From the NCBI GenBank assembly GCA_020353515.1, contig CP070695.1, forward strand, positions 1,524,284-1,588,283: a DNA stretch of 64,000 nt, given 5' to 3'. The stretch's first letter is position 1; each line of letters begins with the position of its first letter. The translations under genes were made by a program, and so were the position numbers. This document shows, in pieces, positions 3,477-22,419 of the stretch. The DNA comes from Candidatus Heimdallarchaeota archaeon (GTDB lineage: Archaea; Asgardarchaeota; Heimdallarchaeia; Hodarchaeales; Hodarchaeaceae). Below the pieces are notes generated by a model. The model made no database searches. It worked only from the letters and a program-made list of their open reading frames with translations, and was not told the DNA's origin.

Positions 3477-4640
3477 ATGAGTACATTCTCAAGATATGTT
3501 GTCCCAGATTTAGAATTTCGTAAGAAAATAGTAAAATTGTCTCAGGATAATGTCAATTTCTGTTACCAATGTTCCAATTGCACTGGGATATGTCCCATAA
3601 ACATGGTGTCCTCGTTTAACCCAAGAGAAATCATTCATTGGGGACAGCTTGGACTAAAGCTATTACCAATTGATTTCGAGAAATTGTGGCGTTGTACAAC
3701 TTGTGGGGCATGTGAATATGTTTGTCCCAAAGAGGTAAAAATTACTGAAATTATTGCAGCAAATCGCTCTTATGGGATAGAAAGTGGAGAAAAAGTTCCT
3801 GCTTCCTATACAACAACGTTAGAATCTTTCTTTTCTTATGGAAATCCATTCAGTTTAGGAGCTGACACTCGTATTGATTGGGCTAAGGGTTTAGATGTTC
3901 CTATTGCAAAGAAAGGAACTGATGTTCTTTATTTTGTCGGTTGTACCGCCTCTTATGATCCTCGATCTCAAAAAGTAGCTCAAGCTCTTTCTTCAATTTT
4001 CAAACATACTAAGCTAAATTTTGGTATTGTAGGGAATGAAGAAAGAGAGTGTGGAAATTGTGTTTACTTTTTAGGCGAGACAGAGTTGAGTGATCATGAA
4101 AGGGAGAGGAATGAAAAATCTATTCAAGAAGTTCACCCCTCTGTTATTGTTACAACCTCTCCTCATTCATTTAATTTCATGAAGAAGACCTATGATCTTC
4201 CAAAAGGTACGGAAGTTTATCACTACACACAGTATCTGGATCAGCTCATAAAGGATGGAACTTTAGAGTTTACCAAACCGTTATCTGATACAAATGTAAC
4301 TTTCCATGATCCTTGTTATTTAGGAAGACATAATGATATTTATGATGAACCACGCAGAGTCTTAGAGGCAATTCCAGGAATTCGATTAGCTGAGATGCCC
4401 AATAATCGACAATTGTCCATCTGTTGCGGTGGAGGTGGTGGAAATGCTTGGGCAGAAACTGAAGTTGAAGAACGACTCTCAATTCCTAGGTTAGACGAAG
4501 CAATTAATGTTGGTGCCTCAGTTTTAGCTACAGCTTGCTATTTCTGTCTACAAATGTTTGAAGATGCCACAAAAGTGACAAATCGTGTAGAAGACATAAA
4601 AGTTAAAGATATAGCTGAATTGGTTGCCGAGGCTTTGTAA
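3477..4640 (+). CDS. HdrD/GlpC-like Fe-S oxidoreductase (2x[4Fe-4S] plus CCG domains)
   Basis: CYQCSNCTGICP, CTTCGACEYVCP, YFVGC, FHDPCYLGR, CCGGGGG, TACYFC. Confidence 0.85.
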   Translation: MSTFSRYVVPDLEFRKKIVKLSQDNVNFCYQCSNCTGICPINMVSSFNPREIIHWGQLGLKLLPIDFEKLWRCTTCGACEYVCPKEVKITEIIAANRSYGIESGEKVPASYTTTLESFFSYGNPFSLGADTRIDWAKGLDVPIAKKGTDVLYFVGCTASYDPRSQKVAQALSSIFKHTKLNFGIVGNEERECGNCVYFLGETELSDHERERNEKSIQEVHPSVIVTTSPHSFNFMKKTYDLPKGTEVYHYTQYLDQLIKDGTLEFTKPLSDTNVTFHDPCYLGRHNDIYDEPRRVLEAIPGIRLAEMPNNRQLSICCGGGGGNAWAETEVEERLSIPRLDEAINVGASVLATACYFCLQMFEDATKVTNRVEDIKVKDIAELVAEAL

Positions 4641-4656
4641 TTGGAAATGAAAAGAG

Positions 4657-6645: not shown

Positions 6646-6651
6646 TGCAAG

Positions 6652-7110
6652 ATGAGTTCAGAAGAAACAAACGGTTTTAATCCAACAATAATAGGTTTTT
6701 ACTGTCGGTGGTGTACACATGCTGCCGCAGATCTAGCTGGGACATCTCGTATTCCAGTTTCAGCAAACGTTATTGGAATTCGTGTCCCTTGTTCAGGCCG
6801 TGTTGATCCTAGCTTCATTTTTGACGCGTTTACCAAGGGTGCGGATGGAGTTCTCATTGGTGGGTGTCACCTTGGTGATTGTCATTATGACGAAGGGAAC
6901 TATAGTGCCTTCAAGCGAACTAAGATACTACAAAAAGTGATACAAGAATTTGGTATTGAACCAGAAAGGGTTCGCATTGAATGGATATCTGCGTCAGAAG
7001 CAAACAAATATCAACAAACGCTTAAAGAATTTACTGAAACGATTAGAGAATTAGGACCCCTAAATTGGGATAAACATTTACAGGAACGGGAGTATGAAAT
7101 ATCAGTGTGA
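6652..7110 (+). CDS. mvhD: F420-non-reducing hydrogenase [2Fe-2S] subunit D
   Basis: CRWC...AADLAG, RVPCSGRVD, GCHLGDCHY. Confidence 0.95.
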   Translation: MSSEETNGFNPTIIGFYCRWCTHAAADLAGTSRIPVSANVIGIRVPCSGRVDPSFIFDAFTKGADGVLIGGCHLGDCHYDEGNYSAFKRTKILQKVIQEFGIEPERVRIEWISASEANKYQQTLKEFTETIRELGPLNWDKHLQEREYEISV

Positions 7111-8087
7111 CGGTGATTGTGATGAGTGAAGAGAAAGCAAAAATAGCCTTTTATTGGGCAGCCTCGTGTGGAGGTTGTGAGATCGCAATCCTAGACTTGG
7201 ACGCAGTTGTGCTCGATGTAGCGGCGAAAGCGGACATTCTTTTTTGGCCTGTTGCTGTAGACACAAAATATCACGATGTAGAAGCAATGCCAGATAATCA
7301 TATTGATGTAACATTTTTCAATGGAGGCATAAGAAATTCTGAAGCAGTGCATGTAGCTAAACTTCTGCGAAAGAAATCGAAATTTCTGGTAGCATTTGGA
7401 ACCTGTGCACACTGCGGTGGAGCACCAGCTCTTGCAAACTTTAAGAGTAAGGAAGCCATTTTTGATCGTGTTTATAACACCACACCAAGTACTTCTAATC
7501 CTGAAGGGGTTTATCCTCAAACTTCTCATAATGTAGAAGAAGGAGAAGTTACCATTCCTGAATTCCTTGAAGCAGTTTATCCTCTTGATCATGTAGTTTC
7601 AGTGGATTATTATCTACCTGGATGTCCTCCTCCTAAAAAATGGATAGTAGCTGGAGTGACTGCGTTCTTAACAGGCGAGCTTCCTCCAAAAGGCTCAGTT
7701 ATTGCAGAAGAATTTGCTCTATGTAAAGAATGTCCAAGAGAAAAACCAGAAAAGCATTCAGTGAAAGAATTCAAGAGAGTCTGGGAAGTTATGGATATAG
7801 ATTTTGAGAAGTGTTTATTAGATCAAGGGATTATTTGTTTAGGACCTGCAACTAGAGCAGGTTGTGAAGCTCGGTGTATAACAACAAACTACCCTTGTCG
7901 AGGATGTTTTGGACCTGCTCCAAAAATTATTGATATGGGTGCCAAAATGATCAGTGTTCTAGGTTCTATTATTGATGAGAAAGATGAAACAAAAATGGAA
8001 CAGATTGTCGAAGAAATTCCAGATATTGCTGGAACTTTATATGAATTTACTGCAGGAAAATCAGTTTTATTAAGGAGGAAAAAGTGA
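7107..8087 (+). CDS. mvhG: F420-non-reducing hydrogenase small subunit
   Basis: SCGGC, AFGTCA, PGCPP, CLGPATRAGC, PCRGCFGP. Confidence 0.92.
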   Translation: MTVIVMSEEKAKIAFYWAASCGGCEIAILDLDAVVLDVAAKADILFWPVAVDTKYHDVEAMPDNHIDVTFFNGGIRNSEAVHVAKLLRKKSKFLVAFGTCAHCGGAPALANFKSKEAIFDRVYNTTPSTSNPEGVYPQTSHNVEEGEVTIPEFLEAVYPLDHVVSVDYYLPGCPPPKKWIVAGVTAFLTGELPPKGSVIAEEFALCKECPREKPEKHSVKEFKRVWEVMDIDFEKCLLDQGIICLGPATRAGCEARCITTNYPCRGCFGPAPKIIDMGAKMISVLGSIIDEKDETKMEQIVEEIPDIAGTLYEFTAGKSVLLRRKK

Positions 8088-8088
8088 A

Positions 8089-9573
8089 ATGACAAATAAC
8101 TATAAAAGTGTTGTAATAGATCCGATTACACGTCTGGAGGGTCATGGAAAAATTCACATCTTTCTAGATGACGCTGGTAATGTTGCTAATGCTTACTTTC
8201 AGGTGCCTGAACTTAGAGGATTTGAAACTTTTTGTGAGGGAAGGTTAGTTGAGGAGATGCCACGAATAACCACACGTATTTGCGGCGTTTGCCCAGGAGC
8301 GCATCACATGGCCTCATCTAAAGCTTTAGACAATGTCTTTAATGTCGATCCTCCTGAACCAGCGAAAAAACTCCGAGAACTCTATTATAGTGCACATATG
8401 ATTCATTCACACATTGCTCATTTTTATGCTCTTGGCGGGCCTGATTTTGTCGTTGGACCATCTGCTCCCCCAGCAAAAAGAAATATCCTTGGTGTTGTAG
8501 ACGCAGTGGGACTTGAAATAGGCACTGAAGTGATCAAACATCGCTCTTATGCACAACAGATTCAAGCAATGATAGCTGCTAATGCGGTTCTTCCGTGTGC
8601 TGGTGTTCCAGGTGGGATGCTAAAACCAATGTCAGAGGAAGAACGTATTCAAATAGAAGAATGGGCTAAATCTACCGTCGAATTTTCTAAGTTTACAATT
8701 AAAATCTTCAATGATGTGGTTTTGGGGAATGAAGACAATAAAGCATTGGTACTCGATCCTGGTTACTATATGAAAAGTTACTATATGGGTCTTGTTGATT
8801 CAAATAATCATGTGAACTTCTATGACGGGCAGATCAGAGTTGTTGATCCGAATGGAAATGAATATGCCAAATTTAACACGGATGAATATCTTGATCATGT
8901 TGAAGAACGACCACTTCCATATTCCTATCTTAAGGCTGTGTACCTTAAAAATGTAGGTTGGAAAGGACTAGTCGAAGGTGATGATTCAGGTATATATCGT
9001 GTTGCACCATTAGCTAGACTGAATGCTGCAGACGGGATGGCGACCCCATTAGCCAACGAAGAGTACAAAAAAATGATGGAAGTATTAGGAAAACCAGCCC
9101 ATCAAACTCTAGCAAATCATTGGGCCAGAGTAATCGAACAGTTATATGCAAGTGAGCGTCTTCTTGAATTAGTTCAAGATCCTCAAATAACATCCTCAGA
9201 CATTCGTGCAGAACCAAATGAACCTGATGAGGGTGTTGGTGTAGTAGAAGCTCCAAGAGGCACCTTGATACATCACTATAAAACTGATAAAAAAGGAGTT
9301 CTCATTAAAGACGGAATCAATCTTATGGTAGCAACTTGCCATAACAATGCTCCTATCTGCATCTCAATTAAAAAGGCAGCACAACAGTTTGTCAAGGGTC
9401 CTGAGGTACAAGAAGGAATGCTAAACATGGTAGAAATGGCATTCAGAGCATACGATCCATGTTTCGCCTGTGCAACTCATTCATTACCAGGTAAGATGCC
9501 TCTAGAAGTATTTCTATATGACACGAATAAGAAGGTTGTCTGGAGAAAAGCACAAAATATTGGTCGAATTTAA
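8089..9573 (+). CDS. mvhA: [NiFe] hydrogenase large subunit, group 3c
   Basis: TRLEGH, L1 RICGVC, EAPRG, L2 RAYDPCFACATH followed by a cleavable C-terminal extension. Confidence 0.95.
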   Translation: MTNNYKSVVIDPITRLEGHGKIHIFLDDAGNVANAYFQVPELRGFETFCEGRLVEEMPRITTRICGVCPGAHHMASSKALDNVFNVDPPEPAKKLRELYYSAHMIHSHIAHFYALGGPDFVVGPSAPPAKRNILGVVDAVGLEIGTEVIKHRSYAQQIQAMIAANAVLPCAGVPGGMLKPMSEEERIQIEEWAKSTVEFSKFTIKIFNDVVLGNEDNKALVLDPGYYMKSYYMGLVDSNNHVNFYDGQIRVVDPNGNEYAKFNTDEYLDHVEERPLPYSYLKAVYLKNVGWKGLVEGDDSGIYRVAPLARLNAADGMATPLANEEYKKMMEVLGKPAHQTLANHWARVIEQLYASERLLELVQDPQITSSDIRAEPNEPDEGVGVVEAPRGTLIHHYKTDKKGVLIKDGINLMVATCHNNAPICISIKKAAQQFVKGPEVQEGMLNMVEMAFRAYDPCFACATHSLPGKMPLEVFLYDTNKKVVWRKAQNIGRI

Positions 9574-9574
9574 C

Positions 9575-9612
9575 TCGCTCCCTTCTTTCCATATCTCTTT
9601 TTTTCTTTTTTA
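9575..9612 (+). terminator. Pyrimidine/T-rich archaeal terminator between convergent mvhA and protease genes
   Basis: ccttctttccatatctcttttttttctttttt-type T-runs right after the mvhA stop. Confidence 0.5.
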
Positions 9613-10095
9613 TTCTTCTTTTAAGAAATAGTTTATGTCTTCAAGAATCATTTTTTTTATGATTGGGATTTTAGCCATAGTCTCTTCTGAGACTTGATCG
9701 GATATATTTTCTTGTATAGGAATTTCAATACCAATTATTCGTATCACTTTCGGCATTAGTTCTGGCAAGGATTTTTTACCGATTTCTAGGGCTGTTGGAA
9801 AATTGATGTCATGAGGAGAAGCTAAGAATGTTGCTTTATTAAGATCCTCTGACTTTAATCTTAAAATTCGTTTTGTTGGAGAAGTAGTTTCAACACTATC
9901 GACAATAAGTACCTTATCATACCCCAACATAGTTTCTAGAACTTGTAAGCCACCTGTTGAGAGCTGTTTATAGTCAATGTCAGCAGGGCCTATTTTAGCG
10001 ACTTCTCGAACAGCTGTTATCCCTATAATATCGTCTCCAGCCAATTCATTACCAATACCTAGTACCAGAATCTTAATTTCAGTAACCTCTTCCAT
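9610..10095 (-). CDS. Hydrogenase maturation protease (HycI/HyaD family)
   Basis: LGIGNELAGDDIIG, IVDS, SPHD; adjacent to mvhA. Confidence 0.9.
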   Translation of the reverse strand: MEEVTEIKILVLGIGNELAGDDIIGITAVREVAKIGPADIDYKQLSTGGLQVLETMLGYDKVLIVDSVETTSPTKRILRLKSEDLNKATFLASPHDINFPTALEIGKKSLPELMPKVIRIIGIEIPIQENISDQVSEETMAKIPIIKKMILEDINYFLKEE

Positions 10096-10136: not shown

Positions 10137-11618
10137 TCAAATTGATGAATAAAGCTTAGGAGTAGAATATACTTTGTAAAAATCAGGAGGATTTCCCGGA
10201 ATACTTCTACATATTTCTTCTAGAATGTTTTTCGAGATTCTACTAAAGAAAGGCCAGAATATTAGCCAATAGATTATTCCAATTAGACCTTTCGGGACTA
10301 TCCGAAAAATTTGATGTAATTCAAGCTTTCTACTATTAATTCGTCTTAAACGGTATCTCAAAATAACATAACCAGGTAAAATAACGTCAGTATGTATTGT
10401 TAGTTCTTTCTCAGGAACTATATTTTGATTATACACCAAATTCTTATTCATAATTCGCTTAAAATTCCTCTTTGTAAAAATCGTACCCAGAAAAGTACCA
10501 AATTTCCATAAATAAAAAATAATTCGTAGGTTACGGGTTTTTTTAATATAAAACAATTTTTGCCATATATTGTGTGAATTTCCACCCAAAACTGCCTTAC
10601 GATGATCTTGAAATACTAATCCTCCAGACCAAGGAGGATCTCCAGGAATATGCCATTCAGGTGGTAAGTCACTAAATTTAGAAAGACTTCCATATGTGAG
10701 ATACTGTTTGGGATTTAATGCTAATTGAATTGCTTGTCTATGACTTATTAACTTTTGTGGAATCAATTCTCGTATACTAAAATCATGACATATTACCTCA
10801 TTTTTCATTCCATCTATTAGTGGACGAGCTAATGACGATTGAATTCCTGTAATCAACCTGATCCAGTAAGAACTTAAGTTTGGAGTAAAGAATGGGATAG
10901 GAAAAATGAGTCGCTTTGGTAACCGCATAATTTCGGCATAACTTTCCATGAATTGTCTATAGGTAATAATATCTGGGCCCCCAATATCATAAACTTGACC
11001 AATGGTTTCAGGTACTTCTATACAGTCCGTTAAATACTTTAAAACATTACGAATAGCTATTGGTTGATTTTTGGTTCTAAGCCATCTAGGTGTAATCATA
11101 ATTGGGAGTCTATTGACAAGATATCTCATCATTTCAAAAGCTGCACTTCCACTCCCAATAATAATTGCTGCACGTAATGTGGTAACAGGTATTGAACACG
11201 AATCCAATATTTTAGAGACTTCAATGCGAGACTTTAGGTGTTTACTTAATTTTTCGTCTTCAATCCCTAAGCCACCTAAATAAATTATTCTCTCAATTTT
11301 TGCATCTTCAGCTGAAATTACTGTGTTTTGTGCTGCTATACGATCTGCTTCGATAAAGTCTTTTCTCTTACTCTCCATAGAATGGATTAAATAATAAACT
11401 ATACTTATTCCTCTCATTGCTTCTTTTAAGGATTTAATATCAAAAACATCAAGATTGATTGTTTCTAAATTCCTATGTTGACTCCACAACCTCATCTTAA
11501 GCTTTTGTCTTGACCTAAATCCCACCCGTACGGTATATCCTTTTTTTAAGAGTCTAGGAACAAGTCTAGAACCTATATAACCAGTAGCTCCAAGTACAAG
11601 AATTTTTTTTTGATCCAA
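10137..11618 (-). CDS. YbjT-like SDR NAD(P)-binding protein with DUF2867-like C-terminus
   Basis: GATGYIG, YYLIHSM, SKHLKSR, C-terminal PKGLIGIIYW. Confidence 0.85.
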   Translation of the reverse strand: MDQKKILVLGATGYIGSRLVPRLLKKGYTVRVGFRSRQKLKMRLWSQHRNLETINLDVFDIKSLKEAMRGISIVYYLIHSMESKRKDFIEADRIAAQNTVISAEDAKIERIIYLGGLGIEDEKLSKHLKSRIEVSKILDSCSIPVTTLRAAIIIGSGSAAFEMMRYLVNRLPIMITPRWLRTKNQPIAIRNVLKYLTDCIEVPETIGQVYDIGGPDIITYRQFMESYAEIMRLPKRLIFPIPFFTPNLSSYWIRLITGIQSSLARPLIDGMKNEVICHDFSIRELIPQKLISHRQAIQLALNPKQYLTYGSLSKFSDLPPEWHIPGDPPWSGGLVFQDHRKAVLGGNSHNIWQKLFYIKKTRNLRIIFYLWKFGTFLGTIFTKRNFKRIMNKNLVYNQNIVPEKELTIHTDVILPGYVILRYRLRRINSRKLELHQIFRIVPKGLIGIIYWLIFWPFFSRISKNILEEICRSIPGNPPDFYKVYSTPKLYSSI

Positions 11619-11645: not shown

Positions 11646-12368
11646 TCAATAATCCTGGCGCGCTTTCCAGAAATCACCATAAAAGAAAAATCCAGTCAGT
11701 TGAGAAATGCCAAATATTGTGAAAATAATTAAGCTTATCAGCTGTAAAACGAAAATTTGATTACTAAAAGCATTAACCAGAGGTATGAAGTTTAATAGGA
11801 ACCAAATCCATGAGAAAATGGGAGCGGATATGAACATAAGAGATCGTTTCCATTTTGAAACAGCTAGAAAGGAATTTAAATCAAACTTGATTCCGAATGT
11901 AGGAAATTTCACTATGGGTGTCCAAGATAAGATCTTCGATTTATGAAATGTTGATTTGAAAATAAAATAATTCAGAAAGTTTATTCCCAGAAGAGAACCA
12001 AATATCCAATGAATGAGAGTATGAGAAAGTATGAAGTTCATGAAACTAACTAAAATGAACAGAATGACACCTAACTCAAAATTCAAAGAGAGAGAAAAAG
12101 TAAAAAAATAAAAAGCTTGTAGAATAAAAATACCAATTGATAGTAGTATAGACCCTACTTTGATGGAGAATTTTGGAACATTCCAACCATCAAAAAAGAT
12201 TTCATCAATTTTTCCTAAGATCTCTCTTTCTTCAGAGGTAATTTGGGATTTTCGAGCGAATTTAACCGCAGTTCGATATTTCTTCCAATGATTTTTCCGA
12301 TTTATTGTTCCTGTTTCTAAAAATACTTTTAATTCTTTGATATTCTCACTCAAATCATAATTTTTCAT
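11646..12368 (-). CDS. Hypothetical membrane protein, weakly M50-peptidase-like
   Basis: About 4 hydrophobic helices; HTLIH (HExxH lacking the Glu), ISAP, GDF. Confidence 0.6.
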   Translation of the reverse strand: MKNYDLSENIKELKVFLETGTINRKNHWKKYRTAVKFARKSQITSEEREILGKIDEIFFDGWNVPKFSIKVGSILLSIGIFILQAFYFFTFSLSLNFELGVILFILVSFMNFILSHTLIHWIFGSLLGINFLNYFIFKSTFHKSKILSWTPIVKFPTFGIKFDLNSFLAVSKWKRSLMFISAPIFSWIWFLLNFIPLVNAFSNQIFVLQLISLIIFTIFGISQLTGFFFYGDFWKARQDY

Positions 12369-12376
12369 AAGAACCC

Positions 12377-13159
12377 CTACTTTGAAATTTGAGTTTTATA
12401 TTTCTCATAGGCGAGTCTAACTGCTAGTAAAACTATCAGAATTAAAGCACAAATAGCTGCAAATAACGAAACTTCCATAACATTTTCAATTTGCTTGATA
12501 AAGATTCCAATAAACGCCCAAATTGGCACTAATGTATAAGCTATATCTTTTCGCTGCAAAATTATTACTATGGTAATAATAGTAGCAACAGTGAGTACTA
12601 TCAATGTCCAAATTGTCTCACTAATTCCAAGGCCGTCCCAATTAATCGATACTAAAAATGCTGTTACATTTGCGACAGTTGCAACAGTTATCCAGCCAAG
12701 ATAAACACTAAAAGGAGTATGAACAGCTAATTTTAGATTTAAAGGGACTGGATTTAATCCTATCTCAAGACGCCAGTAAATTAAGATCAAAGACGCCAAT
12801 AAAACCAACATCGTAACGAGTGAGAATAATACTTGCTCATAATGCCAGAGAAAGATCCATAACGAATTTGCTAGAGAACTAATTATGAATAGACCAGAAA
12901 TTTGCTTATGAAATTCCGCATTTCTTTGTTTAGGTAAAACTTGAAAGACAACGAAGATAAATAGTAGAATATATATTGCCCCCCAAATTGCAAAAACATA
13001 CCCAGAAGGCACGAAAAGATTTGGGTATGAGTCAGATAATTCACCAGTTGTTATTCCATTTAATGGGAGTGCATTAGCTAAAAAATTAACAAATAACGTT
13101 AAAGCCAATCCTATGATATTTCCAACAATTAATAATTCTTTATTAGTAATATTAACCAT
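12377..13159 (-). CDS. TspO/MBR-like tryptophan-rich membrane protein
   Basis: PNLFVPSGYVFAIWGAIY, NSLWIFLW, FSVYLGWITVA. Confidence 0.75.
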   Translation of the reverse strand: MVNITNKELLIVGNIIGLALTLFVNFLANALPLNGITTGELSDSYPNLFVPSGYVFAIWGAIYILLFIFVVFQVLPKQRNAEFHKQISGLFIISSLANSLWIFLWHYEQVLFSLVTMLVLLASLILIYWRLEIGLNPVPLNLKLAVHTPFSVYLGWITVATVANVTAFLVSINWDGLGISETIWTLIVLTVATIITIVIILQRKDIAYTLVPIWAFIGIFIKQIENVMEVSLFAAICALILIVLLAVRLAYEKYKTQISK

Positions 13160-13179: not shown

Positions 13180-13542
13180 CTATTTTTCTAGATATTTTGT
13201 TAAATTTGTTTTTCCTATAGTTAAGTTTGGATTAGTACTCAATATTTGTTTTGCTATCTCAACTAAGATTTTCTTAACTCCATGAGTTTTTTCGATTTCT
13301 GAACCAGGATAAATCCGAATAACAATTCCATCAGAACTTTTATTAATTAAAGTGAAGAATCTGTACTTATCTTTGCTTTCAATGCTCAAAGAATCTACCA
13401 ATATCGCGTTTTTATCTTCTGAAATAAACTGAGTAGTTGTTTTAATGATTCCAGTGTCGTGGTTAACAAAAATTGGTTTTAGATTAGCAAAAATGTTATC
13501 AATAGTAATCTTACCGTTCAAAACAATGTGTGGCATTTTCAA
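13180..13542 (-). CDS. Hypothetical protein
   Basis: Clean 120-aa ORF overlapping the lycopene cyclase stop, in operon context. Confidence 0.65.
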   Translation of the reverse strand: MKMPHIVLNGKITIDNIFANLKPIFVNHDTGIIKTTTQFISEDKNAILVDSLSIESKDKYRFFTLINKSSDGIVIRIYPGSEIEKTHGVKKILVEIAKQILSTNPNLTIGKTNLTKYLEK

Positions 13543-14369
13543 TCTCCTTTGATTTTTCTAGAGTTCAATTTTACAATCTTTAAATAACTTCTGAATCGTA
13601 TTTCACTCTTTTGGCTTGCAATTAGTGTTAACCCAAAGATTATTAGTACATTTGTTACTAGAAAGAATACCATTTCTTCTATAGGTAAAATTCCACCAAT
13701 TAAAATACCAGTGGAGGTGTTTAGTGAAATTGTCCAAATATTTGCAGATATTGCCAATGCATCTATTATAGATAAGTAAGCTGTCGATATCAATAAGAAA
13801 AAAACCAAAGGAACTTTCTTCTCCCATAGAATATCAGCGCCAAACAGCAATTGAAGCATTATTGGAGGAAGTGCCCAAATTAATATTAGATTCAAGTAAA
13901 CTAGAGCACTAATTTGAGAAGTGTATGTAATTATAGCGATTAACCATATTAGAAATATAAAAACAGTGGATAATACACGAATATCTTTTCTCTCTCTTTC
14001 ATCTTTAGAGTTAAGATACAAAGTCTTGCTAAATGTGAAAGTAAAAACTCCTACAAGCAATGTTTGTACAACAAAAAATATATACTCTTCTATCGGGACA
14101 TACCCGATAACGATCCCTAGTACTTTGTTTATATCGTAATACCAGATTTTATTAGCGACGAGAAAATTATCCCATGGTGTTGTGTATATCAGAGCAATAA
14201 TTGCTAAAATGATAATCGCGGTAAAGTATCTGGTAGTTTTAACTAGATTTTTAGATTTCTCAGCAGTTACATGTAAATAATGCCTATATACAAGGTATGC
14301 AACATTGATTATCAAAGGAACTAAGATAAAAAATAAGATAAATGATAAGTACGTCATTTTAATCATCAT
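13539..14369 (-). CDS. crtY: Fused two-domain lycopene cyclase (CrtYcd type)
   Basis: Two repeats of D...IW...P(I)EE..FF (WDNFLV...VPIEEYIFF; IDALAI...LPIEEMVFF); downstream of crtI. Confidence 0.88.
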   Translation of the reverse strand: MMIKMTYLSFILFFILVPLIINVAYLVYRHYLHVTAEKSKNLVKTTRYFTAIIILAIIALIYTTPWDNFLVANKIWYYDINKVLGIVIGYVPIEEYIFFVVQTLLVGVFTFTFSKTLYLNSKDERERKDIRVLSTVFIFLIWLIAIITYTSQISALVYLNLILIWALPPIMLQLLFGADILWEKKVPLVFFLLISTAYLSIIDALAISANIWTISLNTSTGILIGGILPIEEMVFFLVTNVLIIFGLTLIASQKSEIRFRSYLKIVKLNSRKIKGD

Positions 14370-14383
14370 TCAGACTTAACAAA

Positions 14384-15943
14384 TTAGTTGAAGTTACCAT
14401 AATCCTGTCTTTTGATAGTAGTTGACCCATTTTGATATCTCTTGATCAAGTCTGAAGTAACTTTAGCACTTGCAATTACACCTGGTAGACCTGCTCCTGG
14501 ATGCGTTCCAGCTCCAACTAGATATAAGCCTTCTATATCCTCAGATTTATTGTGAGGTCTAAACCAAGCGGATTGGGTAAAGATTGGTTCAATAGAGAAT
14601 CCACTACCTTTATAACTGTTATAATCACGCTCAAAATCTAAAGGAGTTAACATTCTTTCGACTACGAGATTGTCAAGGAGACCAGGTAAATAATTCTCGT
14701 CTAGAAATTTTAATATCTTCTGTTTGAAAGGCTCTGCCTTTTCCTCCCAGTTAATACCTGAATCTTGGTGTGGAACTGGAACCAATATATAGAATGCTTC
14801 ATGCCCTTCAGGGGCAAGATCAGGGTCAGTTCTCGTAGGTACATGTAGGTAGCTTGAAAAGTCTTCAGTGAGAATTTTTCTCTTGAATATATCTTCTAAA
14901 AGTCCTTTATATCTTGAACCTAAGATTATCGTATGATGTTTCATTTCAGGATACTGTTTTTTGGTACCAAAATATATAACAACTAAGCTCATGCTGTATT
15001 TTGCCTTTTTATAACGTTTATCACTATTTTTCTTACGCCACTTTTTGTCGATAAGTTTTGTATAAGTGAAAGCAGGATCAGCATTTGATATGACTATACT
15101 ACTAGAATACAATTTTCCAGCTTCAGTTCTAACACCCACAACCTTCTTCTTTTCAACAACAATTTCTGTAACCTCTTCTTTGGTGAGGATTTCTCCACCC
15201 ATTTCCTTAAATAACTTGCACAATGCATGTACAAGAGTTGTAGTCCCACCTTTTGCGAACCATATTCCATACTCTTTCTCCAAGAATTGTATCAAGCTAT
15301 AAATTGATGGGACAGAAAAGGGGTTTCCTCCTATCAGTAAAGGATGAAAACTAAATACAATGCGTAATTTTTCATTTTTGATATATTTTGACACGAAATT
15401 GTAATTAGATCTATAAGACTGTAAGCGAAATAATGAGGGAGCCACTTTCATCATTGACCAAAAGCTATCAAAAGGTTTGAATGATAATTCTTTGAATCCT
15501 TTCTCAAAGATTGGTTCAACAGCTTTTACCATCCTTTTATACCCATCAGTATCTTGAGGACTAAGCTGTGCAATTTGTGGAATATTCTCATCAGGATGCG
15601 CATAATCAAAGAATGTACCATCATCAAAATAAATTCGATAATAAGGTTCAACGGGTAGAAATTCAACATAATCTTCAATTTTTTTATTATAAAGAGAAAA
15701 TAACTCCTCGAACATAAATGGAGCAGTTATAACTGTAGGACCTGCATCAAATGAGAATCCATTTTCTTTGAACACTCTTGCTCGTCCCCCTATCTGCTCT
15801 ATTTTCTCAAGTATAGTTACTTGATACTTTCCAGTAGCTTGTAATCGAATCCCAGCAGATAAGCCACCAAAACCAGAACCAATAATAATTACCTTTGTAC
15901 CTTGAGTTCCATTCTTTTTTTCGTCATTTATCATTTGAAACAC
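14384..15943 (-). CDS. crtI: Phytoene desaturase, copy 1 (start may be ATG at 15934)
   Basis: IGSGFGGL, FDAGPTVI, LLIGGNPF, QSAWFRPHN, GAGTHPGAGLPGV. Confidence 0.92.
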   Translation of the reverse strand: MFQMINDEKKNGTQGTKVIIIGSGFGGLSAGIRLQATGKYQVTILEKIEQIGGRARVFKENGFSFDAGPTVITAPFMFEELFSLYNKKIEDYVEFLPVEPYYRIYFDDGTFFDYAHPDENIPQIAQLSPQDTDGYKRMVKAVEPIFEKGFKELSFKPFDSFWSMMKVAPSLFRLQSYRSNYNFVSKYIKNEKLRIVFSFHPLLIGGNPFSVPSIYSLIQFLEKEYGIWFAKGGTTTLVHALCKLFKEMGGEILTKEEVTEIVVEKKKVVGVRTEAGKLYSSSIVISNADPAFTYTKLIDKKWRKKNSDKRYKKAKYSMSLVVIYFGTKKQYPEMKHHTIILGSRYKGLLEDIFKRKILTEDFSSYLHVPTRTDPDLAPEGHEAFYILVPVPHQDSGINWEEKAEPFKQKILKFLDENYLPGLLDNLVVERMLTPLDFERDYNSYKGSGFSIEPIFTQSAWFRPHNKSEDIEGLYLVGAGTHPGAGLPGVIASAKVTSDLIKRYQNGSTTIKRQDYGNFN

Positions 15944-15965
15944 ATCTTCAGCGTTTTTGTTTTCA

Positions 15966-15995
15966 TTAAACTAAGTTAAACCAAGATTAACTATT
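15966..15995. promoter_or_regulatory. Three tandem 10-bp direct repeats, candidate operator in the crtI/crtB divergent promoter
   Basis: TTAAACTAAG TTAAACCAAG ATTAACTATT, abutting a TTTAAATA TATA-like box on the minus strand. Confidence 0.5.
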
Positions 15996-16052
15996 TAAAG
16001 GATCATTACCAAAATATATTTAAATACTTGTTCATGAAGTTAATTTAAATTC

Positions 16053-17048
16053 ATGAAATTAATAAATTACAAATTTGGTGAACAAGATATGTACTCGACA
16101 AAAACAGTTGAGAATTGGGGTTTAGTTCCAGAAAATATTGCTTCAAAATACAATATTGTTAAACATTCGTTAGAGGATAGTTACAATGAATGTTTAGAAT
16201 GGATGGCTGTTCATAGTAAATCATTTTATTTTGCTAGTAGATTTTTGCCCCAGGAACAACGAAAATCCGTTGCAGCTCTGTATGCGTTCTGCAGATTAGC
16301 AGACGATATCGTTGATGAAGCACCTGAAGGGACTACAATTGAAGAAATAAATGTAGAGCTTGACAAATTGAAAACAACTGCTTCTCAATTAGTTTCAGGT
16401 TATACCTCTACACTGCCCATACTTCAAGCCTTTAGAGATACAATTCGTAAACATAATATTCCTCTTAAATATATCCATGAGCTAATTGAAGGGGTCCGTA
16501 TGGATCTTACAAAGAAAGAATATCAAACTGATGAGGAATTAGATCTGTATATGTATCGAGTGGCAAGTACAGTCGGCCTTATGATGACCCACATTTTCAT
16601 GGAGAATCCCGCTCCACACACTCTTGCTCGTGCCGCTGATTTAGGAAAAGCAATGCAATTAACCAATATTCTTAGAGATGTTAAGGAAGATTATGAGCGA
16701 GGTAGGATTTATTTACCTAAATTTACATGTGATACATATAATGTTACCGAAGCTGATTTCCAAAAAGACGAAGTCAGAGAAAATTTAAAATCATTGATCA
16801 GATATGAGTCTACCAGAGCCAAGGGTTATTATAAACAAGCTGATCTTGGAATAGAAGAATTACCCCCAGCAGCAGCCTATACCGTCAAAGTTGCTTCGCG
16901 TGTTTATGGTGAAATACTGAATGAAATTCGTCGTCGTGATTACCAGATATTAAAGCAGAGAGCTGTTGTATCAAAATTTCGTAAGATTTTATTAGCATCT
17001 AAAGTCCGACTTGAATATTTAAGGAAAATAAAGCCTACTACCAATTGA
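16053..17048 (+). CDS. crtB: Phytoene synthase, copy 1 (likely start ATG 16089)
   Basis: SKSFYFAS, LYAFCRLADDIVD, LGKAMQLTNILRDVKED, GRIYLP. Confidence 0.93.
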   Translation: MKLINYKFGEQDMYSTKTVENWGLVPENIASKYNIVKHSLEDSYNECLEWMAVHSKSFYFASRFLPQEQRKSVAALYAFCRLADDIVDEAPEGTTIEEINVELDKLKTTASQLVSGYTSTLPILQAFRDTIRKHNIPLKYIHELIEGVRMDLTKKEYQTDEELDLYMYRVASTVGLMMTHIFMENPAPHTLARAADLGKAMQLTNILRDVKEDYERGRIYLPKFTCDTYNVTEADFQKDEVRENLKSLIRYESTRAKGYYKQADLGIEELPPAAAYTVKVASRVYGEILNEIRRRDYQILKQRAVVSKFRKILLASKVRLEYLRKIKPTTN

Positions 17049-17063
17049 TTATGAAGAAGGAAG

Positions 17064-18221
17064 TTGTATTTCATGGAGTCCTCAAAGGATCTTATCCTAA
17101 AATACCTCAAAGCAAATCGGGGGAAAGAGATTCCCGTCTCTGAGATCTCAGAAACAAACAATTTAAAACCAAATACAATTTCTAATGCGATCAAAGAGTT
17201 GAATTACAAAGGAGAAATAGTCATAGAACGACGCCAGTTAAATCGAGGAAGGTATACTGTAATTTGGTTAAGTGGTGATTCAATTCACTATCCTTATGTT
17301 CATGAGAAAGAAAGAATTAATCTCCGTCTTCACAATTATTTTAGAGACAATGATTATAGAGAGATTTCATTCCGTGAATTAACCCAATATTTTGGAAATA
17401 ATATTGCGGAATCGCGGATAACAGAACTCGATGTGAAAAATGCAATTCAGAAATTGATTGAGAAAAATAAGATAGAATCACGAACCGACTTACTATTCGA
17501 AGGAGATCTGTTGATTATTAAACCCGAGGATAAATTCTCAATTAAAGGAGCAAAGGTGACTCCTGAGGAACTCATTCCGTATCCTTGTGATAGAGCACAG
17601 ATACACGAATTAATTGAATATCTGAAATCTTCTGAATATGATTTTTCAATTTTTTTAAAGAAAATATCTCAATTTGTGAAGAATTATCAAACATTTATTA
17701 CATGTCTCATTACTCCATTAATGATTGAGGTGGGAGATTTATGGGCTCAAACGAAGATTTCTACTGCCGAGGAGCATGTTATTTCAAATAGAATTGAAAA
17801 AATAATTATTGATAGAATTAATCGTGCCAGGGTCTCAAATGGAAGGGGGACAATTATTCTTGCTCCTGTAGAGGGCGAAGAGCATGTCATTAGCTTACTG
17901 AGTTTAGAATTAATCTTCTCTGAACTTGGTTATCATACAATTAACATTGGTCGTCCTCTCCCTATTCGTTCAATGATTCAGTATGTTAAAGAGCTCAATA
18001 AAAAACCTCAATGGCTTTTTATGTCAATCACACTCCGTGCATACATCGGTACGCTACAACATAACTTGGAATCAATCAGAAATGTCTTTAATGATGATAT
18101 TAATATTGCTATAGGTGGCCAAGGTTTGATAGAAAAGAATCGTAATGAGTTCCCTAAGGCAGATGTGATAGTAATCAATGAGCAGGATTTTCAAAAATTT
18201 ATCGAATTCATGTCAAGATAA
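17064..18221 (+). CDS. Cobalamin-binding transcriptional regulator (CarH/LitR-like) with two N-terminal winged-helix domains
   Basis: W-x9-EH motif (WAQTKISTAEEH), B12 Rossmann motif GEEHVIS...MSIT...IGGQG, two wHTH-like segments, position within the crt cluster. Confidence 0.8.
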   Translation: MYFMESSKDLILKYLKANRGKEIPVSEISETNNLKPNTISNAIKELNYKGEIVIERRQLNRGRYTVIWLSGDSIHYPYVHEKERINLRLHNYFRDNDYREISFRELTQYFGNNIAESRITELDVKNAIQKLIEKNKIESRTDLLFEGDLLIIKPEDKFSIKGAKVTPEELIPYPCDRAQIHELIEYLKSSEYDFSIFLKKISQFVKNYQTFITCLITPLMIEVGDLWAQTKISTAEEHVISNRIEKIIIDRINRARVSNGRGTIILAPVEGEEHVISLLSLELIFSELGYHTINIGRPLPIRSMIQYVKELNKKPQWLFMSITLRAYIGTLQHNLESIRNVFNDDINIAIGGQGLIEKNRNEFPKADVIVINEQDFQKFIEFMSR

Positions 18222-18237
18222 AGAATTTGAAACCTAG

Positions 18238-18720
18238 ATGATATTAAAAGTGAGAAAAATGATCAATAGTGAAATTAAAGAGTTTTTAGATCACGCAAAA
18301 ATCCCCCTACGCTTATCGATATTGACTGAATCAGGTTGGCCAATCATCCTTTCACTCTGGTTTACTTATACAAATGATGGTAAGTTTCTTCTTGCTACTC
18401 CAGAAAAGGCAAAAGTGGTGAAATTGTTAAGAAAAAACCCGAAATGCGCCTTTGAGATTTCAAATGAAGAGGCTCCCTATTGTGGAATTAGAGGACAAGC
18501 CAAAGCACGAATCTTGGAATCAAAAGGAATCGATGTATTAGAAACATTACTACAGCGTTATATTGTAGATGGGAAAAATTCGCCTTTAGGTAAAAAATTG
18601 TTGTCAAGGAACATCCAAGAAGTTGCCATAGAAGTGTCTCCAATGAATATCTTTTCTTGGAACTTTAAAAATCGTATGAAGGATTCCAGAGCCATTAAAC
18701 CTCAATTAACATGTCTATAA
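18238..18720 (+). CDS. Pyridoxamine 5'-phosphate oxidase-like (split-barrel flavin-binding) protein
   Basis: GWPIILSLWF, AKVVKLLRKNPKCAFEI, GIRGQA. Confidence 0.85.
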   Translation: MILKVRKMINSEIKEFLDHAKIPLRLSILTESGWPIILSLWFTYTNDGKFLLATPEKAKVVKLLRKNPKCAFEISNEEAPYCGIRGQAKARILESKGIDVLETLLQRYIVDGKNSPLGKKLLSRNIQEVAIEVSPMNIFSWNFKNRMKDSRAIKPQLTCL

Positions 18721-18933
18721 ATATATTCTTTCTCTGTTGGTAGAAACACCACTTAGAAGGAGCTGAAAAGGTATAAGCCGATTAAATCCCAAAAAGTTAA
18801 TTCACACTTTTTTACCTCCTACGACTCCCAAGTCTCCCCTTGTACCTCGTTGCTATACATTAACACAATCAGATCGAACAGGAGAATTATATTTAACCAT
18901 TGGACCCGAATTTAACCGAAAACAATTAAAAGG

Positions 18934-19053
18934 ATGGCAAACACGAATAAAACACGTTCTTCTCTTAAAGAAAATCCATGTCTTCAATGCGGATTTCAGA
19001 TTCGAGAGAGGGTAACAGTATGTGATAGATGTGGATTAAACCAGCCAACTTAA
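18934..19053 (+). CDS. 39-aa zinc-ribbon microprotein (not in ORF track)
   Basis: Hand translation MANTNKTRSSLKENPCLQCGFQIRERVTVCDRCGLNQPT*; CxxCG-x9-CxxCG. Confidence 0.65.
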   Translation: MANTNKTRSSLKENPCLQCGFQIRERVTVCDRCGLNQPT

Positions 19054-19130
19054 AAATTATAATAGAATAATTAAAAATTTCAAATCTACTAAGGTGATAG
19101 ATGATAAATCTTGGGAGATAAATAGATAAT

Positions 19131-20639
19131 TTGGTTATCATAATGGATTTTGATCATAAAAAGGGAAATAATAAAAGATTGATTATTATTGGAGCGGGTC
19201 TAGGTGGTCTTGCATCAGCTATTCGTATGCAGGCAGCAGGTTATGATGTACTTTTATTAGAGAAAACAAACCAAATTGGTGGAAAGGCATCTGTTTTTAA
19301 AATCAATAATCACATCTTTGACGCGGGACCAACTGCTATTACAGTTCCTCACTTAATTCAGGAGCTATTCGATTTAAATAATGAAAATATGAACGATTAT
19401 TTAGAATTAATTCCAATTGAACCATATTTTCGAATTTACTTTCACGATAGGTCTTATTTTAACTATTCAACTGTGGAAGAAAATTTGGCTCAAATAGCGA
19501 AAATAAGTCCAGATGATGTTCAAGGCTATAAAAAGATGATGAAGTCGATTGAACCAATTTTTCAAAAAGGATTTTTAGAGCTTTCTGATAAGCCTTTCAA
19601 GTCATTCTTCTCAATGTTGAAAATTGGGCCTCCATTATTAAAGTTAGGTGCTTATAGATCAGTCTATTCTTATGTTTCAAAATATATTAAAGATGAAAAA
19701 TTACGAATGGTTTTCACTTATCATCCCTTACTGATAGGGGGAAACCCCTTTAAAATCACATCAATTTATATGCTTATTCAGGCTGTTGAAAAAGAATGGG
19801 GAGTTTGGTTTGTAAAAGGTGGAACAAATTCCTTAGTTCGTGAGTTTGGTAATTTATTCACGAGATTAGGAGGAAAAATTATCTTAAATTGTGAAGTGGG
19901 AGAAATAATTGTATCAGATAAGTCAGTTGTTGAAGGAGTAACTACTACGGATGGGAAATATTATGAATCATCTATTATTATTTCTAATGCTCCTGTTGCG
20001 ACAACTTATATGAATATGATCAAGGAAAAATATCGAAAGAAAAATTCCAATAAACGATATACAAATGCTACTTATGGAATGAGCGTATTTATGATCTATT
20101 TTGGAACAGATTGTAAGTATCCAAATCTTTATATCCATAATATCTTATTAGGTCCTCGTTATAAAGGATTACTTAATGATATTTTTAATAAAAAACAATT
20201 AAGCGAGAAAGGAGACTTTTCAGCATATTTATATATCCCTACACGAATTGATCCCTCCCTTGCTCCAAGAGAAGGAGAATCTTGTTATATCTTAGTTCCA
20301 GTACCAAACCAAGATTCTGGTATAGATTGGCATATTAAAAAGAAGCAGTTTCGTGACCACATCATTGGCTTTCTCGAAAAAAATTACATGCCAGGTTTAC
20401 AAAAGCACATAAAGGCTGAAAAGATAATGACTCCAGAAGATTTTGAAAGTTTACATTCAGATTACAAAGGGGCAGTTTTTTCATTAGCTCCAACTTTTCT
20501 CCAGTCAGCTTATTTCAGGCCCCATAGCAAATCCGAGGATATCAAGGGATTATATCTAGTTGGAGCTGGAACGCATCCAGGTGGAGGTATTCCAGGAGTA
20601 ATTTCAAGTGCAAAATTAACTTCTAATCTAATACTTTAA
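19131..20639 (+). CDS. crtI: Phytoene desaturase, copy 2
   Basis: IGAGLGGL, FDAGPT, LLIGGNPF, QSAYFRPH, GAGTHPGGGIPGV. Confidence 0.9.
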   Translation: MVIIMDFDHKKGNNKRLIIIGAGLGGLASAIRMQAAGYDVLLLEKTNQIGGKASVFKINNHIFDAGPTAITVPHLIQELFDLNNENMNDYLELIPIEPYFRIYFHDRSYFNYSTVEENLAQIAKISPDDVQGYKKMMKSIEPIFQKGFLELSDKPFKSFFSMLKIGPPLLKLGAYRSVYSYVSKYIKDEKLRMVFTYHPLLIGGNPFKITSIYMLIQAVEKEWGVWFVKGGTNSLVREFGNLFTRLGGKIILNCEVGEIIVSDKSVVEGVTTTDGKYYESSIIISNAPVATTYMNMIKEKYRKKNSNKRYTNATYGMSVFMIYFGTDCKYPNLYIHNILLGPRYKGLLNDIFNKKQLSEKGDFSAYLYIPTRIDPSLAPREGESCYILVPVPNQDSGIDWHIKKKQFRDHIIGFLEKNYMPGLQKHIKAEKIMTPEDFESLHSDYKGAVFSLAPTFLQSAYFRPHSKSEDIKGLYLVGAGTHPGGGIPGVISSAKLTSNLIL

Positions 20640-20661
20640 AATTCTATGAAGTCAAAAAAGA

Positions 20662-21633
20662 TTAATTCCTATGAAGGCTCCAATAGAATTCTAATCTAAT
20701 TCTTAGTGCAATTAATATTTTTCTAAATTTTGAAACAATAGCTCTCTGTGATAGTACTTGATAATTTAATCTTTTTATTTCATTTAATATTTCTTTATAT
20801 ATGCGTGAAGCAACTTTGACGGTATAGGCTGCCGCTGGGGGTAATTCTTCTATGCCAAGATCTGCTATACGATAAAAAGCCCTTGCCCGCTCCGATTCAT
20901 AACGTATAAGTGCTTTAAGATTTTCTTTTACAATCTTTTTCTTAAGATCTTTCTTTGAAACTCTATAAATCTTTCTTGTCTCTTCGGGGAGATATATTCT
21001 TCCTTTATTGAAATCTTCCTTAATATCTCTAAGAATATTGGTTAATTGCATTGCTTTTCCTAAATCAGCGGCACGAGCGAGAGTGTGTGGAGCGGGGTTT
21101 TCCAAAAAGATATGAGTCATCATAAGGCCGACTGTACTTGCCACTCGATACATATACAGATCTAATTCCTCATCAGTTTGATATTCTTTCTTAGTGAGAT
21201 CCATACGGACTCCTTCAATAAGCTCATGGATATAATTGATTGGAATATTATGTCTTTGAATTGTATCTCCAAAAGCTTGAAGTATTGGATCCGTTGTAAC
21301 AAAATTTTCAGCTAATCTTTCTACAACTGTTTTCAGATCATAAAGCAAATCAGTAATTTCTTTGATACAAGTCCCTTCAGGGGCCTCATCAACGATATCA
21401 TCTGCTAACCTGCAGAACGCATACAGAGCTGCGACGGATTTTCGTTGTTCGTGTGGTAAAAACCTACTAGCAAAATAGAATGACTTGCTATGAACTGCCA
21501 TCCATTGTAAACACTTCTTATAGCTTGCTTCAAGAGAATGACTTGTTACATGAAGTTTTATATCTGTCTTTTGTGGAAAAATATACCAATTTTTTCCAAG
21601 CTTTGTGGAATACTTCATATTTTGGTGCTCCAT
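20662..21633 (-). CDS. crtB: Phytoene synthase, copy 2
   Basis: Same DDIVD and NILRD motifs; long blocks identical to copy 1. Confidence 0.92.
   Translation of the reverse strand: MEHQNMKYSTKLGKNWYIFPQKTDIKLHVTSHSLEASYKKCLQWMAVHSKSFYFASRFLPHEQRKSVAALYAFCRLADDIVDEAPEGTCIKEITDLLYDLKTVVERLAENFVTTDPILQAFGDTIQRHNIPINYIHELIEGVRMDLTKKEYQTDEELDLYMYRVASTVGLMMTHIFLENPAPHTLARAADLGKAMQLTNILRDIKEDFNKGRIYLPEETRKIYRVSKKDLKKKIVKENLKALIRYESERARAFYRIADLGIEELPPAAAYTVKVASRIYKEILNEIKRLNYQVLSQRAIVSKFRKILIALRIRLEFYWSLHRN
21025..21192. repeat. Inverted near-identical repeat shared by the two crtB genes (partner 16512-16679)
   Basis: 16512-16588 is the reverse complement of 21116-21192 (77 bp); 16626-16679 is the reverse complement of 21025-21078 (54 bp). 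Confidence 0.9.
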
Positions 21634-21963: not shown

Positions 21964-22419
21964 CTAAGAAATATGTTCGAAAATTCGCTCCATTTTAATT
22001 AATTTAGAGACTTTTGAAACACCATTGAGTTGTTTAAGTTTTTTAATGAAGTAATTTAAGTCTTGAAGGGTTTCAGAAAGAACTTCAAGCATAAAAATTC
22101 TTTCATCATTGGCTCGATAGAGAGAAAGAAGTCTACTGTTGCTTTGTTCTGCTTGGGCTGGTAATAGCTCCATTTGGATAAAATTCTCATAGCTCGGTTC
22201 AAGTTGAAATGTAATTATCGCTTGGATTCCGTATCCGAGATTTTCGGGAGATGTTATAACTTTAAAACCCTGGATAACTCCTTTTGCTTGCAATCGTCTG
22301 ACGCGGTTTCTAACTGTGCCCTCGGTTCTTTGAATAGACCTTGCAATTTCTGTGAACTTGGTTCTACCATTGTGATCTAAAATTTCTAGAATTTTCCTAT
22401 CAATTTCATCATAATTCAT
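21964..22419 (-). CDS. Lrp/AsnC family regulator
   Basis: DEIDRKILEIL..NGR, TEGTVRNRVRRL..GVI. Confidence 0.9.
   Translation of the reverse strand: MNYDEIDRKILEILDHNGRTKFTEIARSIQRTEGTVRNRVRRLQAKGVIQGFKVITSPENLGYGIQAIITFQLEPSYENFIQMELLPAQAEQSNSRLLSLYRANDERIFMLEVLSETLQDLNYFIKKLKQLNGVSKVSKLIKMERIFEHIS

Follow-up and report, generated by a model that had tools for sequence, protein, structure and literature searches.

A 64,000-nucleotide stretch from the genome of a Candidatus Heimdallarchaeota archaeon (Hodarchaeales; contig CP070695.1 of GCA_020353515.1, positions 1,524,284 to 1,588,283), hereafter the window, contains a carotenoid gene island at 11.6–21.6 kb, in which crtB-1, a gene of the phytoene/squalene synthase family, is followed by a gene for a 382-amino-acid protein, here called the regulator. 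This protein carries a cobalamin-binding domain (CBD) with the motifs of the B12 photoreceptors CarH and LitR behind a winged-helix head, and to judge from its sequence and surroundings it probably acts as a light switch of pigment synthesis, of an uncharacterised archaeal kind. It seems reasonably probable that it works as a CarH-like photoreceptor-repressor on an archaeal promoter, an adenosylcobalamin (AdoCbl)-dependent oligomer repressing crtB in the dark and light releasing it. The core of this idea, a CarH-type cobalamin sensor module on a non-MerR head controlling carotenoid genes, had been put forward in a preliminary description of the window, and it is favoured by the signature and fold of the sensor domain, the gene order, a conserved candidate operator, and the cofactor and light-related genes of the organism.

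The predicted cobalamin sensor domain

The regulator gene and the segments encoding the parts of its product are as follows.

17073..18221, plus strand: regulator gene, winged helix–degenerate winged helix–CBD, 382 amino acids; the open reading frame (ORF) opens at TTG 17064
17076..17303, plus strand: core winged helix, residues 5–80
17316..17558, plus strand: insert, residues 85–165, a diverged duplicate of the winged helix (hhalign against the core)
17592..17825, plus strand: four-helix-bundle cap, with G224xxW227 and E237-H238 (Wx9EH)
17850..18218, plus strand: Rossmann cobalamin-binding subdomain, with G271xxH274, G296xxxP300, S321-x-T323 and G351-G352

ATG 17073 is the probable start, because the gene call on the contig gives 382 amino acids and the homologues begin with MESSKD. 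The preliminary description had read a Wx9EH motif and an E-x-H cobalamin Rossmann domain from the ORF at 17064..18221, and both are confirmed by its translation (W227-x9-E237-H238 and E272-x-H274-x-x-S277), by Pfam and by conservation in 26 family members. Pfam recognises B12-binding_2 (residues 208–247), B12-binding (263–373) and, weakly, HTH_11 (10–54), the CBD scores being 24–28 bits. The signature of light-responsive CBDs consists of GxxW, EH, GxxH and GxxxP (PMC11796333), and the regulator has all four (G224xxW227, E237-H238, G271xxH274 and G296xxxP300). Within the family, GxxW and EH are present in 26/26 members, GxxH retains its His in all 26 and its Gly in 20, and GxxxP retains its Gly in 20 and its Pro in 25. 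CarH homologues have been defined by the motif ExHx2G...SxV/T...GG together with Wx9EH (PMC8156234), which in the regulator takes the form E272-x-H274-x2-S277...S321-x-T323...G351-G352. G224, W227, E237, H238, E270 and H274 are invariant in the 26 members, H274 being the predicted lower axial His; since the cofactor-contacting residues do not vary among proteins otherwise only 26–45% identical, selection for ligand binding is suggested.

An AlphaFold2 model built from the 26-sequence alignment has a mean predicted local distance difference test score (pLDDT) of 81.6, with ~90 for both the first winged helix and residues 177–385. Foldseek places residues ~175–385 with probability 1.0 on the photocobilins (8j2w), the cap and cobalamin domains of MetH, CarH (5c8d/5c8a), CtMerR (8jbs) and AerR (7te2). 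The modelled CBD is close to the structure of Thermus thermophilus CarH (TtCarH), the target-normalised TM-scores being 0.70–0.76 for 5c8a, 5c8d and 8c3x. When the family profile is compared with the sequences of the Protein Data Bank, photocobilin 8j2w comes first (7.5e-10), and its GxxW-x9-EH and GxxH fall in the same alignment columns; Trp and Glu-His are both missing from the aligned cap positions of MetH and the trimethylamine corrinoid protein. When 1.84 billion representatives were searched exhaustively with the profile, only 16 clusters scored at or below 1e-30, all of them the regulator family itself, followed by 132 matches to the CBD only. Because 130 of these 132 nearest remote relatives carry Wx9EH, the CBD of the regulator falls inside the photoreceptor branch. 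A word-based search with the CBD alone returned only the regulator family, and in a six-frame scan of the genome the regulator is single-copy and the sole photoreceptor-type CBD.

The winged-helix head

The core winged helix is modelled at a pLDDT of ~90 with H-H-H-E-E topology. Throughout the family it matches HTH_11, MarR, TrmB, GntR and ArsR-type models, and its recognition-helix motif I39-S40-N41-A42 is invariant. No MerR match was found in the regulator or its homologues, true MerR-CBD proteins appearing only among the remote matches. A second winged-helix-like domain had also been claimed, and it is real but degenerate: insert residues ~88–140 align with the profile of the core (hhalign probability 92%, E 6.7e-7), the model gives three helices and a hairpin at a pLDDT of 50–70, and the invariant recognition motif has been lost from this copy. 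The 80-residue insert is confined to a subclade of 381–384 amino acids and corresponds to an alignment gap in the 313-amino-acid members, which have a single winged-helix head and make up most of the family. In a separate subclade, an independent copy of the winged helix is found at the N-terminus (hhalign 97%, 9e-11). One winged helix is the ancestral architecture, and the second is a derived, lineage-specific duplication.

The crtB promoter and its candidate operator

The regulator lies in an operon with crtB-1, from which crtI-1 and crtY diverge.

13539..14369, minus strand: crtY, a fused CrtYc/Yd-type lycopene cyclase (TIGR03462, 1.1e-34, in two stretches)
14384..15943, minus strand: crtI-1, phytoene desaturase, divergent from crtB-1 (TIGR02734, 583 bits, cut-off 238)
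16014..16026, plus strand: TATA-like box ATATATTTAAATA, separated by 4 nt from the first octamer
16031..16057, no strand assigned: candidate operator TTCATGAA-N11-TTCATGAA, palindromic octamers at 16031–16038 and 16050–16057
16089..17048, plus strand: crtB-1, phytoene/squalene synthase family (PF00494, SQS_PSY, 266 bits)
18238..18720, plus strand: PPOX/split-barrel-like protein of 160 amino acids (weak matches to PNPOx_N and Rv2061_F420)

The conserved start of crtB-1 is ATG 16089 (MYSTK), 31 nt after the candidate operator, within which the ORF-opening ATG 16053 falls. The regulator follows the crtB-1 stop (17048) by 15 bp, as the preliminary description had it, or by 24 bp if the conserved ATG 17073 is the start, and the PPOX-like gene is third in the operon after a gap of 16 bp.

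When the divergent crtI/crtB spacers are aligned, the octamer pair, 10 or 11 bp apart, is the one element that survives while the surrounding DNA drifts. The dyad is present with at most one mismatch per octamer in 25/27 related loci, and the remaining two are the same contig, which ends before the promoter. Over 11 distinct promoters, seven of the eight octamer positions hold 2.0 bits, against ~0.6 bits in the flanks. In some loci (L013 and L033) the 19-bp period continues into a third octamer. The TATA-like box is conserved in the loci labelled Hod or Loki. Most loci have their TATA box before the dyad and their ATG start codon 20–31 nt after it. The usual archaeal spacing between TATA box and transcription start predicts a crtB start near the second octamer, so that protein bound there would extend from about −18 to +9, which is the classic position of an archaeal repressor that blocks polymerase recruitment. 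Among the loci compared, the module has no further conserved DNA-binding gene; an Lrp/AsnC gene at 21964–22419 is not syntenic. Tandem 10-bp repeats at 15966–15995 were considered as an operator and set aside, being recognisable by eye in the closest relative only and absent from farther loci.

The genome is closed (4.94 Mb, 96% complete by markers) and contains TTCATGAA 284 times, from which ~0.1 exact dyads are expected by chance; two are observed, the second lying within a gene at 4,547,518. When up to two mismatches are allowed, 50 dyad sites are found, of which most are within ORFs and none is close to the genes for heliorhodopsin or photolyase. A wider regulon was therefore rejected, as the exact dyad occurs only at the crtB-1 promoter and in this one intragenic copy: of the 'carotenoid regulon' proposed earlier, the dyad at one divergent promoter stands, whereas the second crtI/crtB pair lacks a site and the genome offers no further good ones.

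In four loci of the 313-amino-acid type (L007–L010, ~9915–9948), a weaker second dyad, TTCATAAA-N10-GTCATGAA, is located in the 3′-terminal part of crtB and precedes the regulator start by ~60 bp; its two deviations are identical in 4/4. It may be an internal autoregulatory promoter, or may have been conserved through the overlapping crtB coding sequence.

Distribution and gene order

Loci were gathered by a pattern scan of species-representative genomes and a genome search. In all 11 loci of the first scan, crtB is immediately followed by the regulator, with crtI-crtY divergent, and no examined locus departs from the order crtI ← / → crtB → regulator, even in a second genus with CrtB only 35–40% identical. 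The PPOX-like gene is kept in the module in 7/11 first-scan loci, being syntenic in L003–L006 and nearby in L007–L009.

Of 400 sampled Asgard genomes, 16 contain the family, and these belong to two GTDB genera of one class: 14 of the 22 genomes of the window's genus (the window's own included) and two of the four of the other. A wide Asgard spread, as the NCBI labels (Promethearchaeota, Hod-, Hermod-, Heimdall- and Thorarchaeota) would have it, was discarded on this GTDB placement. Among 83 genomes of the class, 14 have both the regulator and crtY, two the regulator only, one crtY only (at a contig end) and 66 neither, a co-occurrence that is descriptive because related genomes are not independent samples. 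Where the regulator and the lycopene cyclase both occur, they are on the same contig, 3–4 kb apart. One full-length family member was found in a metagenome-assembled genome labelled Methanobacteriota.

An unrelated 285-amino-acid protein with a Wx9EH/ExH CBD is common in Nitrososphaerota (the P0067 cluster, with 133 members in one 90% cluster). It belongs to marine ammonia-oxidising archaea, has a short unrecognised N-terminal domain and is a candidate for a separate archaeal B12 photosensor.

Cofactor supply and light-related genes

A CobA/BtuR adenosyltransferase (6e-61) is encoded at 2278577–2281186 of the genome contig, adjacent to the large subunit of methylmalonyl-CoA mutase and its B12-binding small subunit. 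This neighbourhood indicates that AdoCbl is both made and used in the cell, the corrinoid presumably being salvaged.

At 2524559–2528250, roughly 1 Mb from the carotenoid island, genes for a heliorhodopsin (2e-83) and for a photolyase/cryptochrome-family protein (FAD_binding_7, 1e-82) share a strand, with ~2.4 kb between them. They are independent signs of life in light, and light exposure of the organism is plausible. For the retinal link drawn in the preliminary description, the genome offers a heliorhodopsin; a search of the genome for Blh/BCD (PF15461) gave no match, and since the control genomes were silent too it is uninformative on absence. The same holds for type-1 rhodopsin (PF01036), with no match in the genome and silent controls. 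Taken together, Mvh-Hdr hydrogen metabolism, photolyase, heliorhodopsin, carotenoid genes and a light-type B12 sensor in one genome point to an illuminated, probably micro-oxic sediment surface.

Proposed mechanism and alternatives

In the mechanism proposed here, cobalamin binding, the response to light, the switching of oligomers, the sign of regulation and the transcription start are all predictions. AdoCbl would be supplied from salvaged corrinoid via the CobA-type adenosyltransferase. In the dark it would be held between the four-helix cap, whose W227, E237 and H238 would cover the adenosyl group, and the Rossmann domain, whose H274 would be the lower ligand, and would drive oligomerisation of the C-terminal domains. 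The oligomer would gather the winged helices onto the two TTCATGAA octamers, which adjoin the TATA-like box downstream and span the point where transcription of the crtB-regulator-PPOX operon is predicted to begin, and recruitment of RNA polymerase would be blocked; the bound protein may also occlude the B recognition element (BRE) side of the divergent crtI-crtY promoter. Upon illumination, the Co–C bond would be cleaved, the oligomer would disassemble, its affinity for DNA would fall and the carotenoid genes would be transcribed. The regulator would be autoregulated, since it is in the same operon.

Several observations weigh against this mechanism. The residue after the Trp is Ala228, where T. 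thermophilus CarH has His. In TtCarH, the His adjoining the Trp forms the bis-His light state; a light state of that type therefore cannot form likewise in the regulator, and the photochemistry after Co–C cleavage may differ. CtMerR and the photocobilins have been suggested to use a photochemical mechanism other than that of TtCarH (PMC11796333). Ser, not Gly, follows ExHxx, a change that the preliminary description had flagged as a possible sign against cobalamin binding. The change is real, although on comparison of the sequences it is not an anomaly: Gly occupies this position in 5 of the 26 members, the family holds S, G, A or P there, and the remote Wx9EH-bearing relatives likewise show G, A, S or P. 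No octamers were found in the regions upstream of crtI-2 or crtB-2, the second crtI and crtB of the island. Neither CbiB nor a PduO-type adenosyltransferase was found in the genome; without CbiB the organism looks like a corrinoid salvager, and the cofactor depends on salvage. The genome encodes an O2-sensitive Mvh-Hdr system, and the relatives come from sediments. Finally, in the most divergent loci (L011–L013) the TATA-like box stands after the dyad and not before it, so that the sign of regulation is less certain there; an activator or occlusion of the BRE would fit too.

The want of CbiB, by which corrinoids must be salvaged, and the anaerobic Mvh-Hdr metabolism would suit a cobalamin-dependent sensor that reads corrinoid availability or redox in the dark and not light, carotenoids being tied to B12 status in a B12 auxotroph. 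The AerR-type CBD proteins, one of which is among the fold matches (7te2), show that regulators can read other cobalamin forms. Such a sensor is nevertheless unlikely. Photoreceptor-type CBDs have an adenosyl upper ligand, to which the Wx9EH cap is specific (PMC8156234, PMC11796333), AdoCbl so bound is inherently photolabile, the targets are genes of a photoprotective pigment in a genome that also has a photolyase and a heliorhodopsin, and no obvious logic leads from B12 supply to carotenoids.

The position of the dyad in L011–L013, immediately upstream of the TATA-like box, is typical of archaeal activators, and a light- and B12-dependent activator, of which the oligomer or the photolysed form recruits TBP/TFB beside the TATA box, has to be weighed. 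In most loci, however, the dyad covers the predicted transcription start, which is the position of a repressor, and the characterised CarH/LitR-type CBD regulators are all dark-state repressors (PMC8156234), making activation decidedly unlikely. It is quite improbable that the regulator represses independently of cofactor, as Myxococcus xanthus CarA does, or uses its CBD as a mere dimerisation scaffold: B12-independent paralogues of CarH exist (PMC9304148) and the Pfam CBD scores are low, whereas CarA lacks Wx9EH (PMC8156234) and the cofactor-contacting residues of the regulator are invariant. The automatic JGI name 'methanogenic corrinoid protein MtbC1', together with weak NCBIfam matches to MtbC and MtgC, would make it a methyltransferase corrinoid protein, which is scarcely credible and was rejected, as the curated MtbC/MtaC/MtgC scores (~22 bits against cut-offs of 350–450) are far too low and as the protein has an N-terminal winged helix, a cap with Wx9EH, no methyltransferase neighbours and a fixed synteny with crt genes.

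The photoreceptor-repressor reading has a broader form, towards which we lean narrowly: that a working AdoCbl photoreceptor-repressor is native to Asgard archaea, that it is the first B12 light switch on a eukaryote-like TATA/TBP/TFB promoter, acting via a 27-bp operator, that its head was duplicated twice independently within one genus, and that sediment-dwelling, hydrogen-metabolising relatives of eukaryotes sense light.

The carotenoid island

The remaining genes of the island are as follows; its minus strand also has a 120-amino-acid ORF.

11646..12368, minus strand: membrane protein of 240 amino acids, ending the crtI-crtY operon (67–78% identical in L003 and L008)
12377..13159, minus strand: TspO-like tryptophan-rich membrane protein of 260 amino acids with ~8 transmembrane (TM) helices (Atlas score 0.97 to TspO-like clusters)
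19131..20639, plus strand: second crtI (crtI-2), by profile match
20662..21633, minus strand: second crtB paralogue (crtB-2), SQS_PSY, convergent with crtI-2

Of the neighbours listed in the preliminary description, crtI and crtY are upheld by profiles, and crtB as a gene of the SQS_PSY family. Scores of crtB-1 against the curated CrtB and HpnD equivalogs are all under cut-off, and the gene is named CrtB because of its context with crtI and the lycopene cyclase. The TspO-like gene, included there as well, lies outside the region 13539–21633 to which that description had assigned it; a Pfam search of its product gave no match, and the likeness to TspO is one of protein-language-model similarity alone. 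This gene recurs with the crt/regulator module and directly follows the regulator in L012 and L013 (11012–11731), which recalls the crtK/tspO genes known in carotenoid clusters of Rhodobacter.

The conserved 11646–12368 membrane protein has an H-x3-H motif within a TM helix. It was considered as a carotene-cleaving enzyme, but its Atlas matches are unnamed clusters only and this assignment was dropped; that it supplies a missing step of carotenoid modification or cleavage is speculative. The 410-bp gap at 18721–19130 before crtI-2 holds an ORF of ~39 amino acids for a CxxC...CxxC zinc ribbon (MANTNKTRSSLKENPCLQCGF...), which was under the ORF cut-off.

The Mvh-Hdr system claimed for this organism was found at 3477–10095, on both strands, as a complete set of genes for HdrBC-like and HdrA-like proteins, MvhD, MvhG, MvhA and a maturation protease. 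This cluster is 1.5 kb from the carotenoid island, with an NAD(P)-binding/NmrA-like gene (10137–11618) between them.

Significance and comparison with known systems

To our knowledge, B12-based photoreception has so far been characterised in bacteria only, and almost only with MerR heads. Heimdallarchaeia, to which Hodarchaeales belong, is the archaeal group placed nearest to eukaryotes. If the proposed reading is true, an archaeal version on a TBP/TFB promoter extends B12 photoreception to a second domain of life, the carotenoid pathway has been wired a second time, convergently, to the same sensor by another DNA-binding domain, and archaeal or eukaryote-like transcription systems gain a compact green-light switch whose palindromic operator is simple. 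The statement in the preliminary description that no characterised example is known agrees with a literature search on CarH, LitR and B12 photoreceptors with archaea, Asgard, Hodarchaeales or winged helix, most subscription journals lying outside it, in which no such protein was described; fusions of helix-turn-helix (HTH) domains with CBDs are mentioned in general, with no archaea, in PMC11796333.

The regulator resembles CarH and class I LitR of T. thermophilus, M. xanthus and Bacillus megaterium (5c8d, 5c8e, 5c8a) in its C-terminal four-helix bundle and Rossmann CBD with Wx9EH and ExH, in its linkage to crtB and crtI, in a candidate operator that overlaps a carotenoid promoter, and in the repeated units of that operator, suited to an oligomer. 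It differs from them in its head, which is an ArsR/MarR/HTH_11-like winged helix with a degenerate duplicate where theirs is MerR, and in its promoter, which is of the archaeal TATA/TFB type. Its palindromic octamer repeats every 18–19 bp, whereas CarH uses 11-bp direct repeats, nAnnTnnACAn. Unlike TtCarH, it has Ala228 after the Trp, with no bis-His light state, and Ser in place of Gly in ExHxxG. Against the curated CarH equivalog NF052513 (TransRegCarH) it scores 25.4 bits, far below the cut-off of 400, and in the CBD only.

The best profile and fold matches are to the photocobilins and CtMerR (8j2w/8j2x/8j2y and 8jbs/8jbt; PMC10979010, PMC11796333), which share GxxW, EH, GxxH and GxxxP with the regulator, as they share the lack of the bis-His arrangement of TtCarH. 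The photocobilins differ in having a biliverdin-binding domain and enzymatic outputs, and CtMerR in its MerR head; none of these proteins is archaeal, and none has the winged helix of the regulator. MetH, in its cap and cobalamin domains, and MtbC/MtaC share the two-subdomain fold and the His-on Rossmann motif, but lack the Trp and Glu-His of the cap, bind methylcobalamin for catalysis and have no DNA-binding domain. XRE/HTH_3-CBD proteins (such as P0143 and P0146) and the 285-amino-acid proteins of Nitrososphaerota, all uncharacterised, likewise carry a Wx9EH-type CBD on another N-terminal head, although their N-terminal domains are unrelated to that of the regulator and no crt linkage is known for them. 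New here are the two-headed 382-amino-acid subtype, a closed genome by which the regulon is confined to one promoter, and the context of cofactor-supply and light-related genes.

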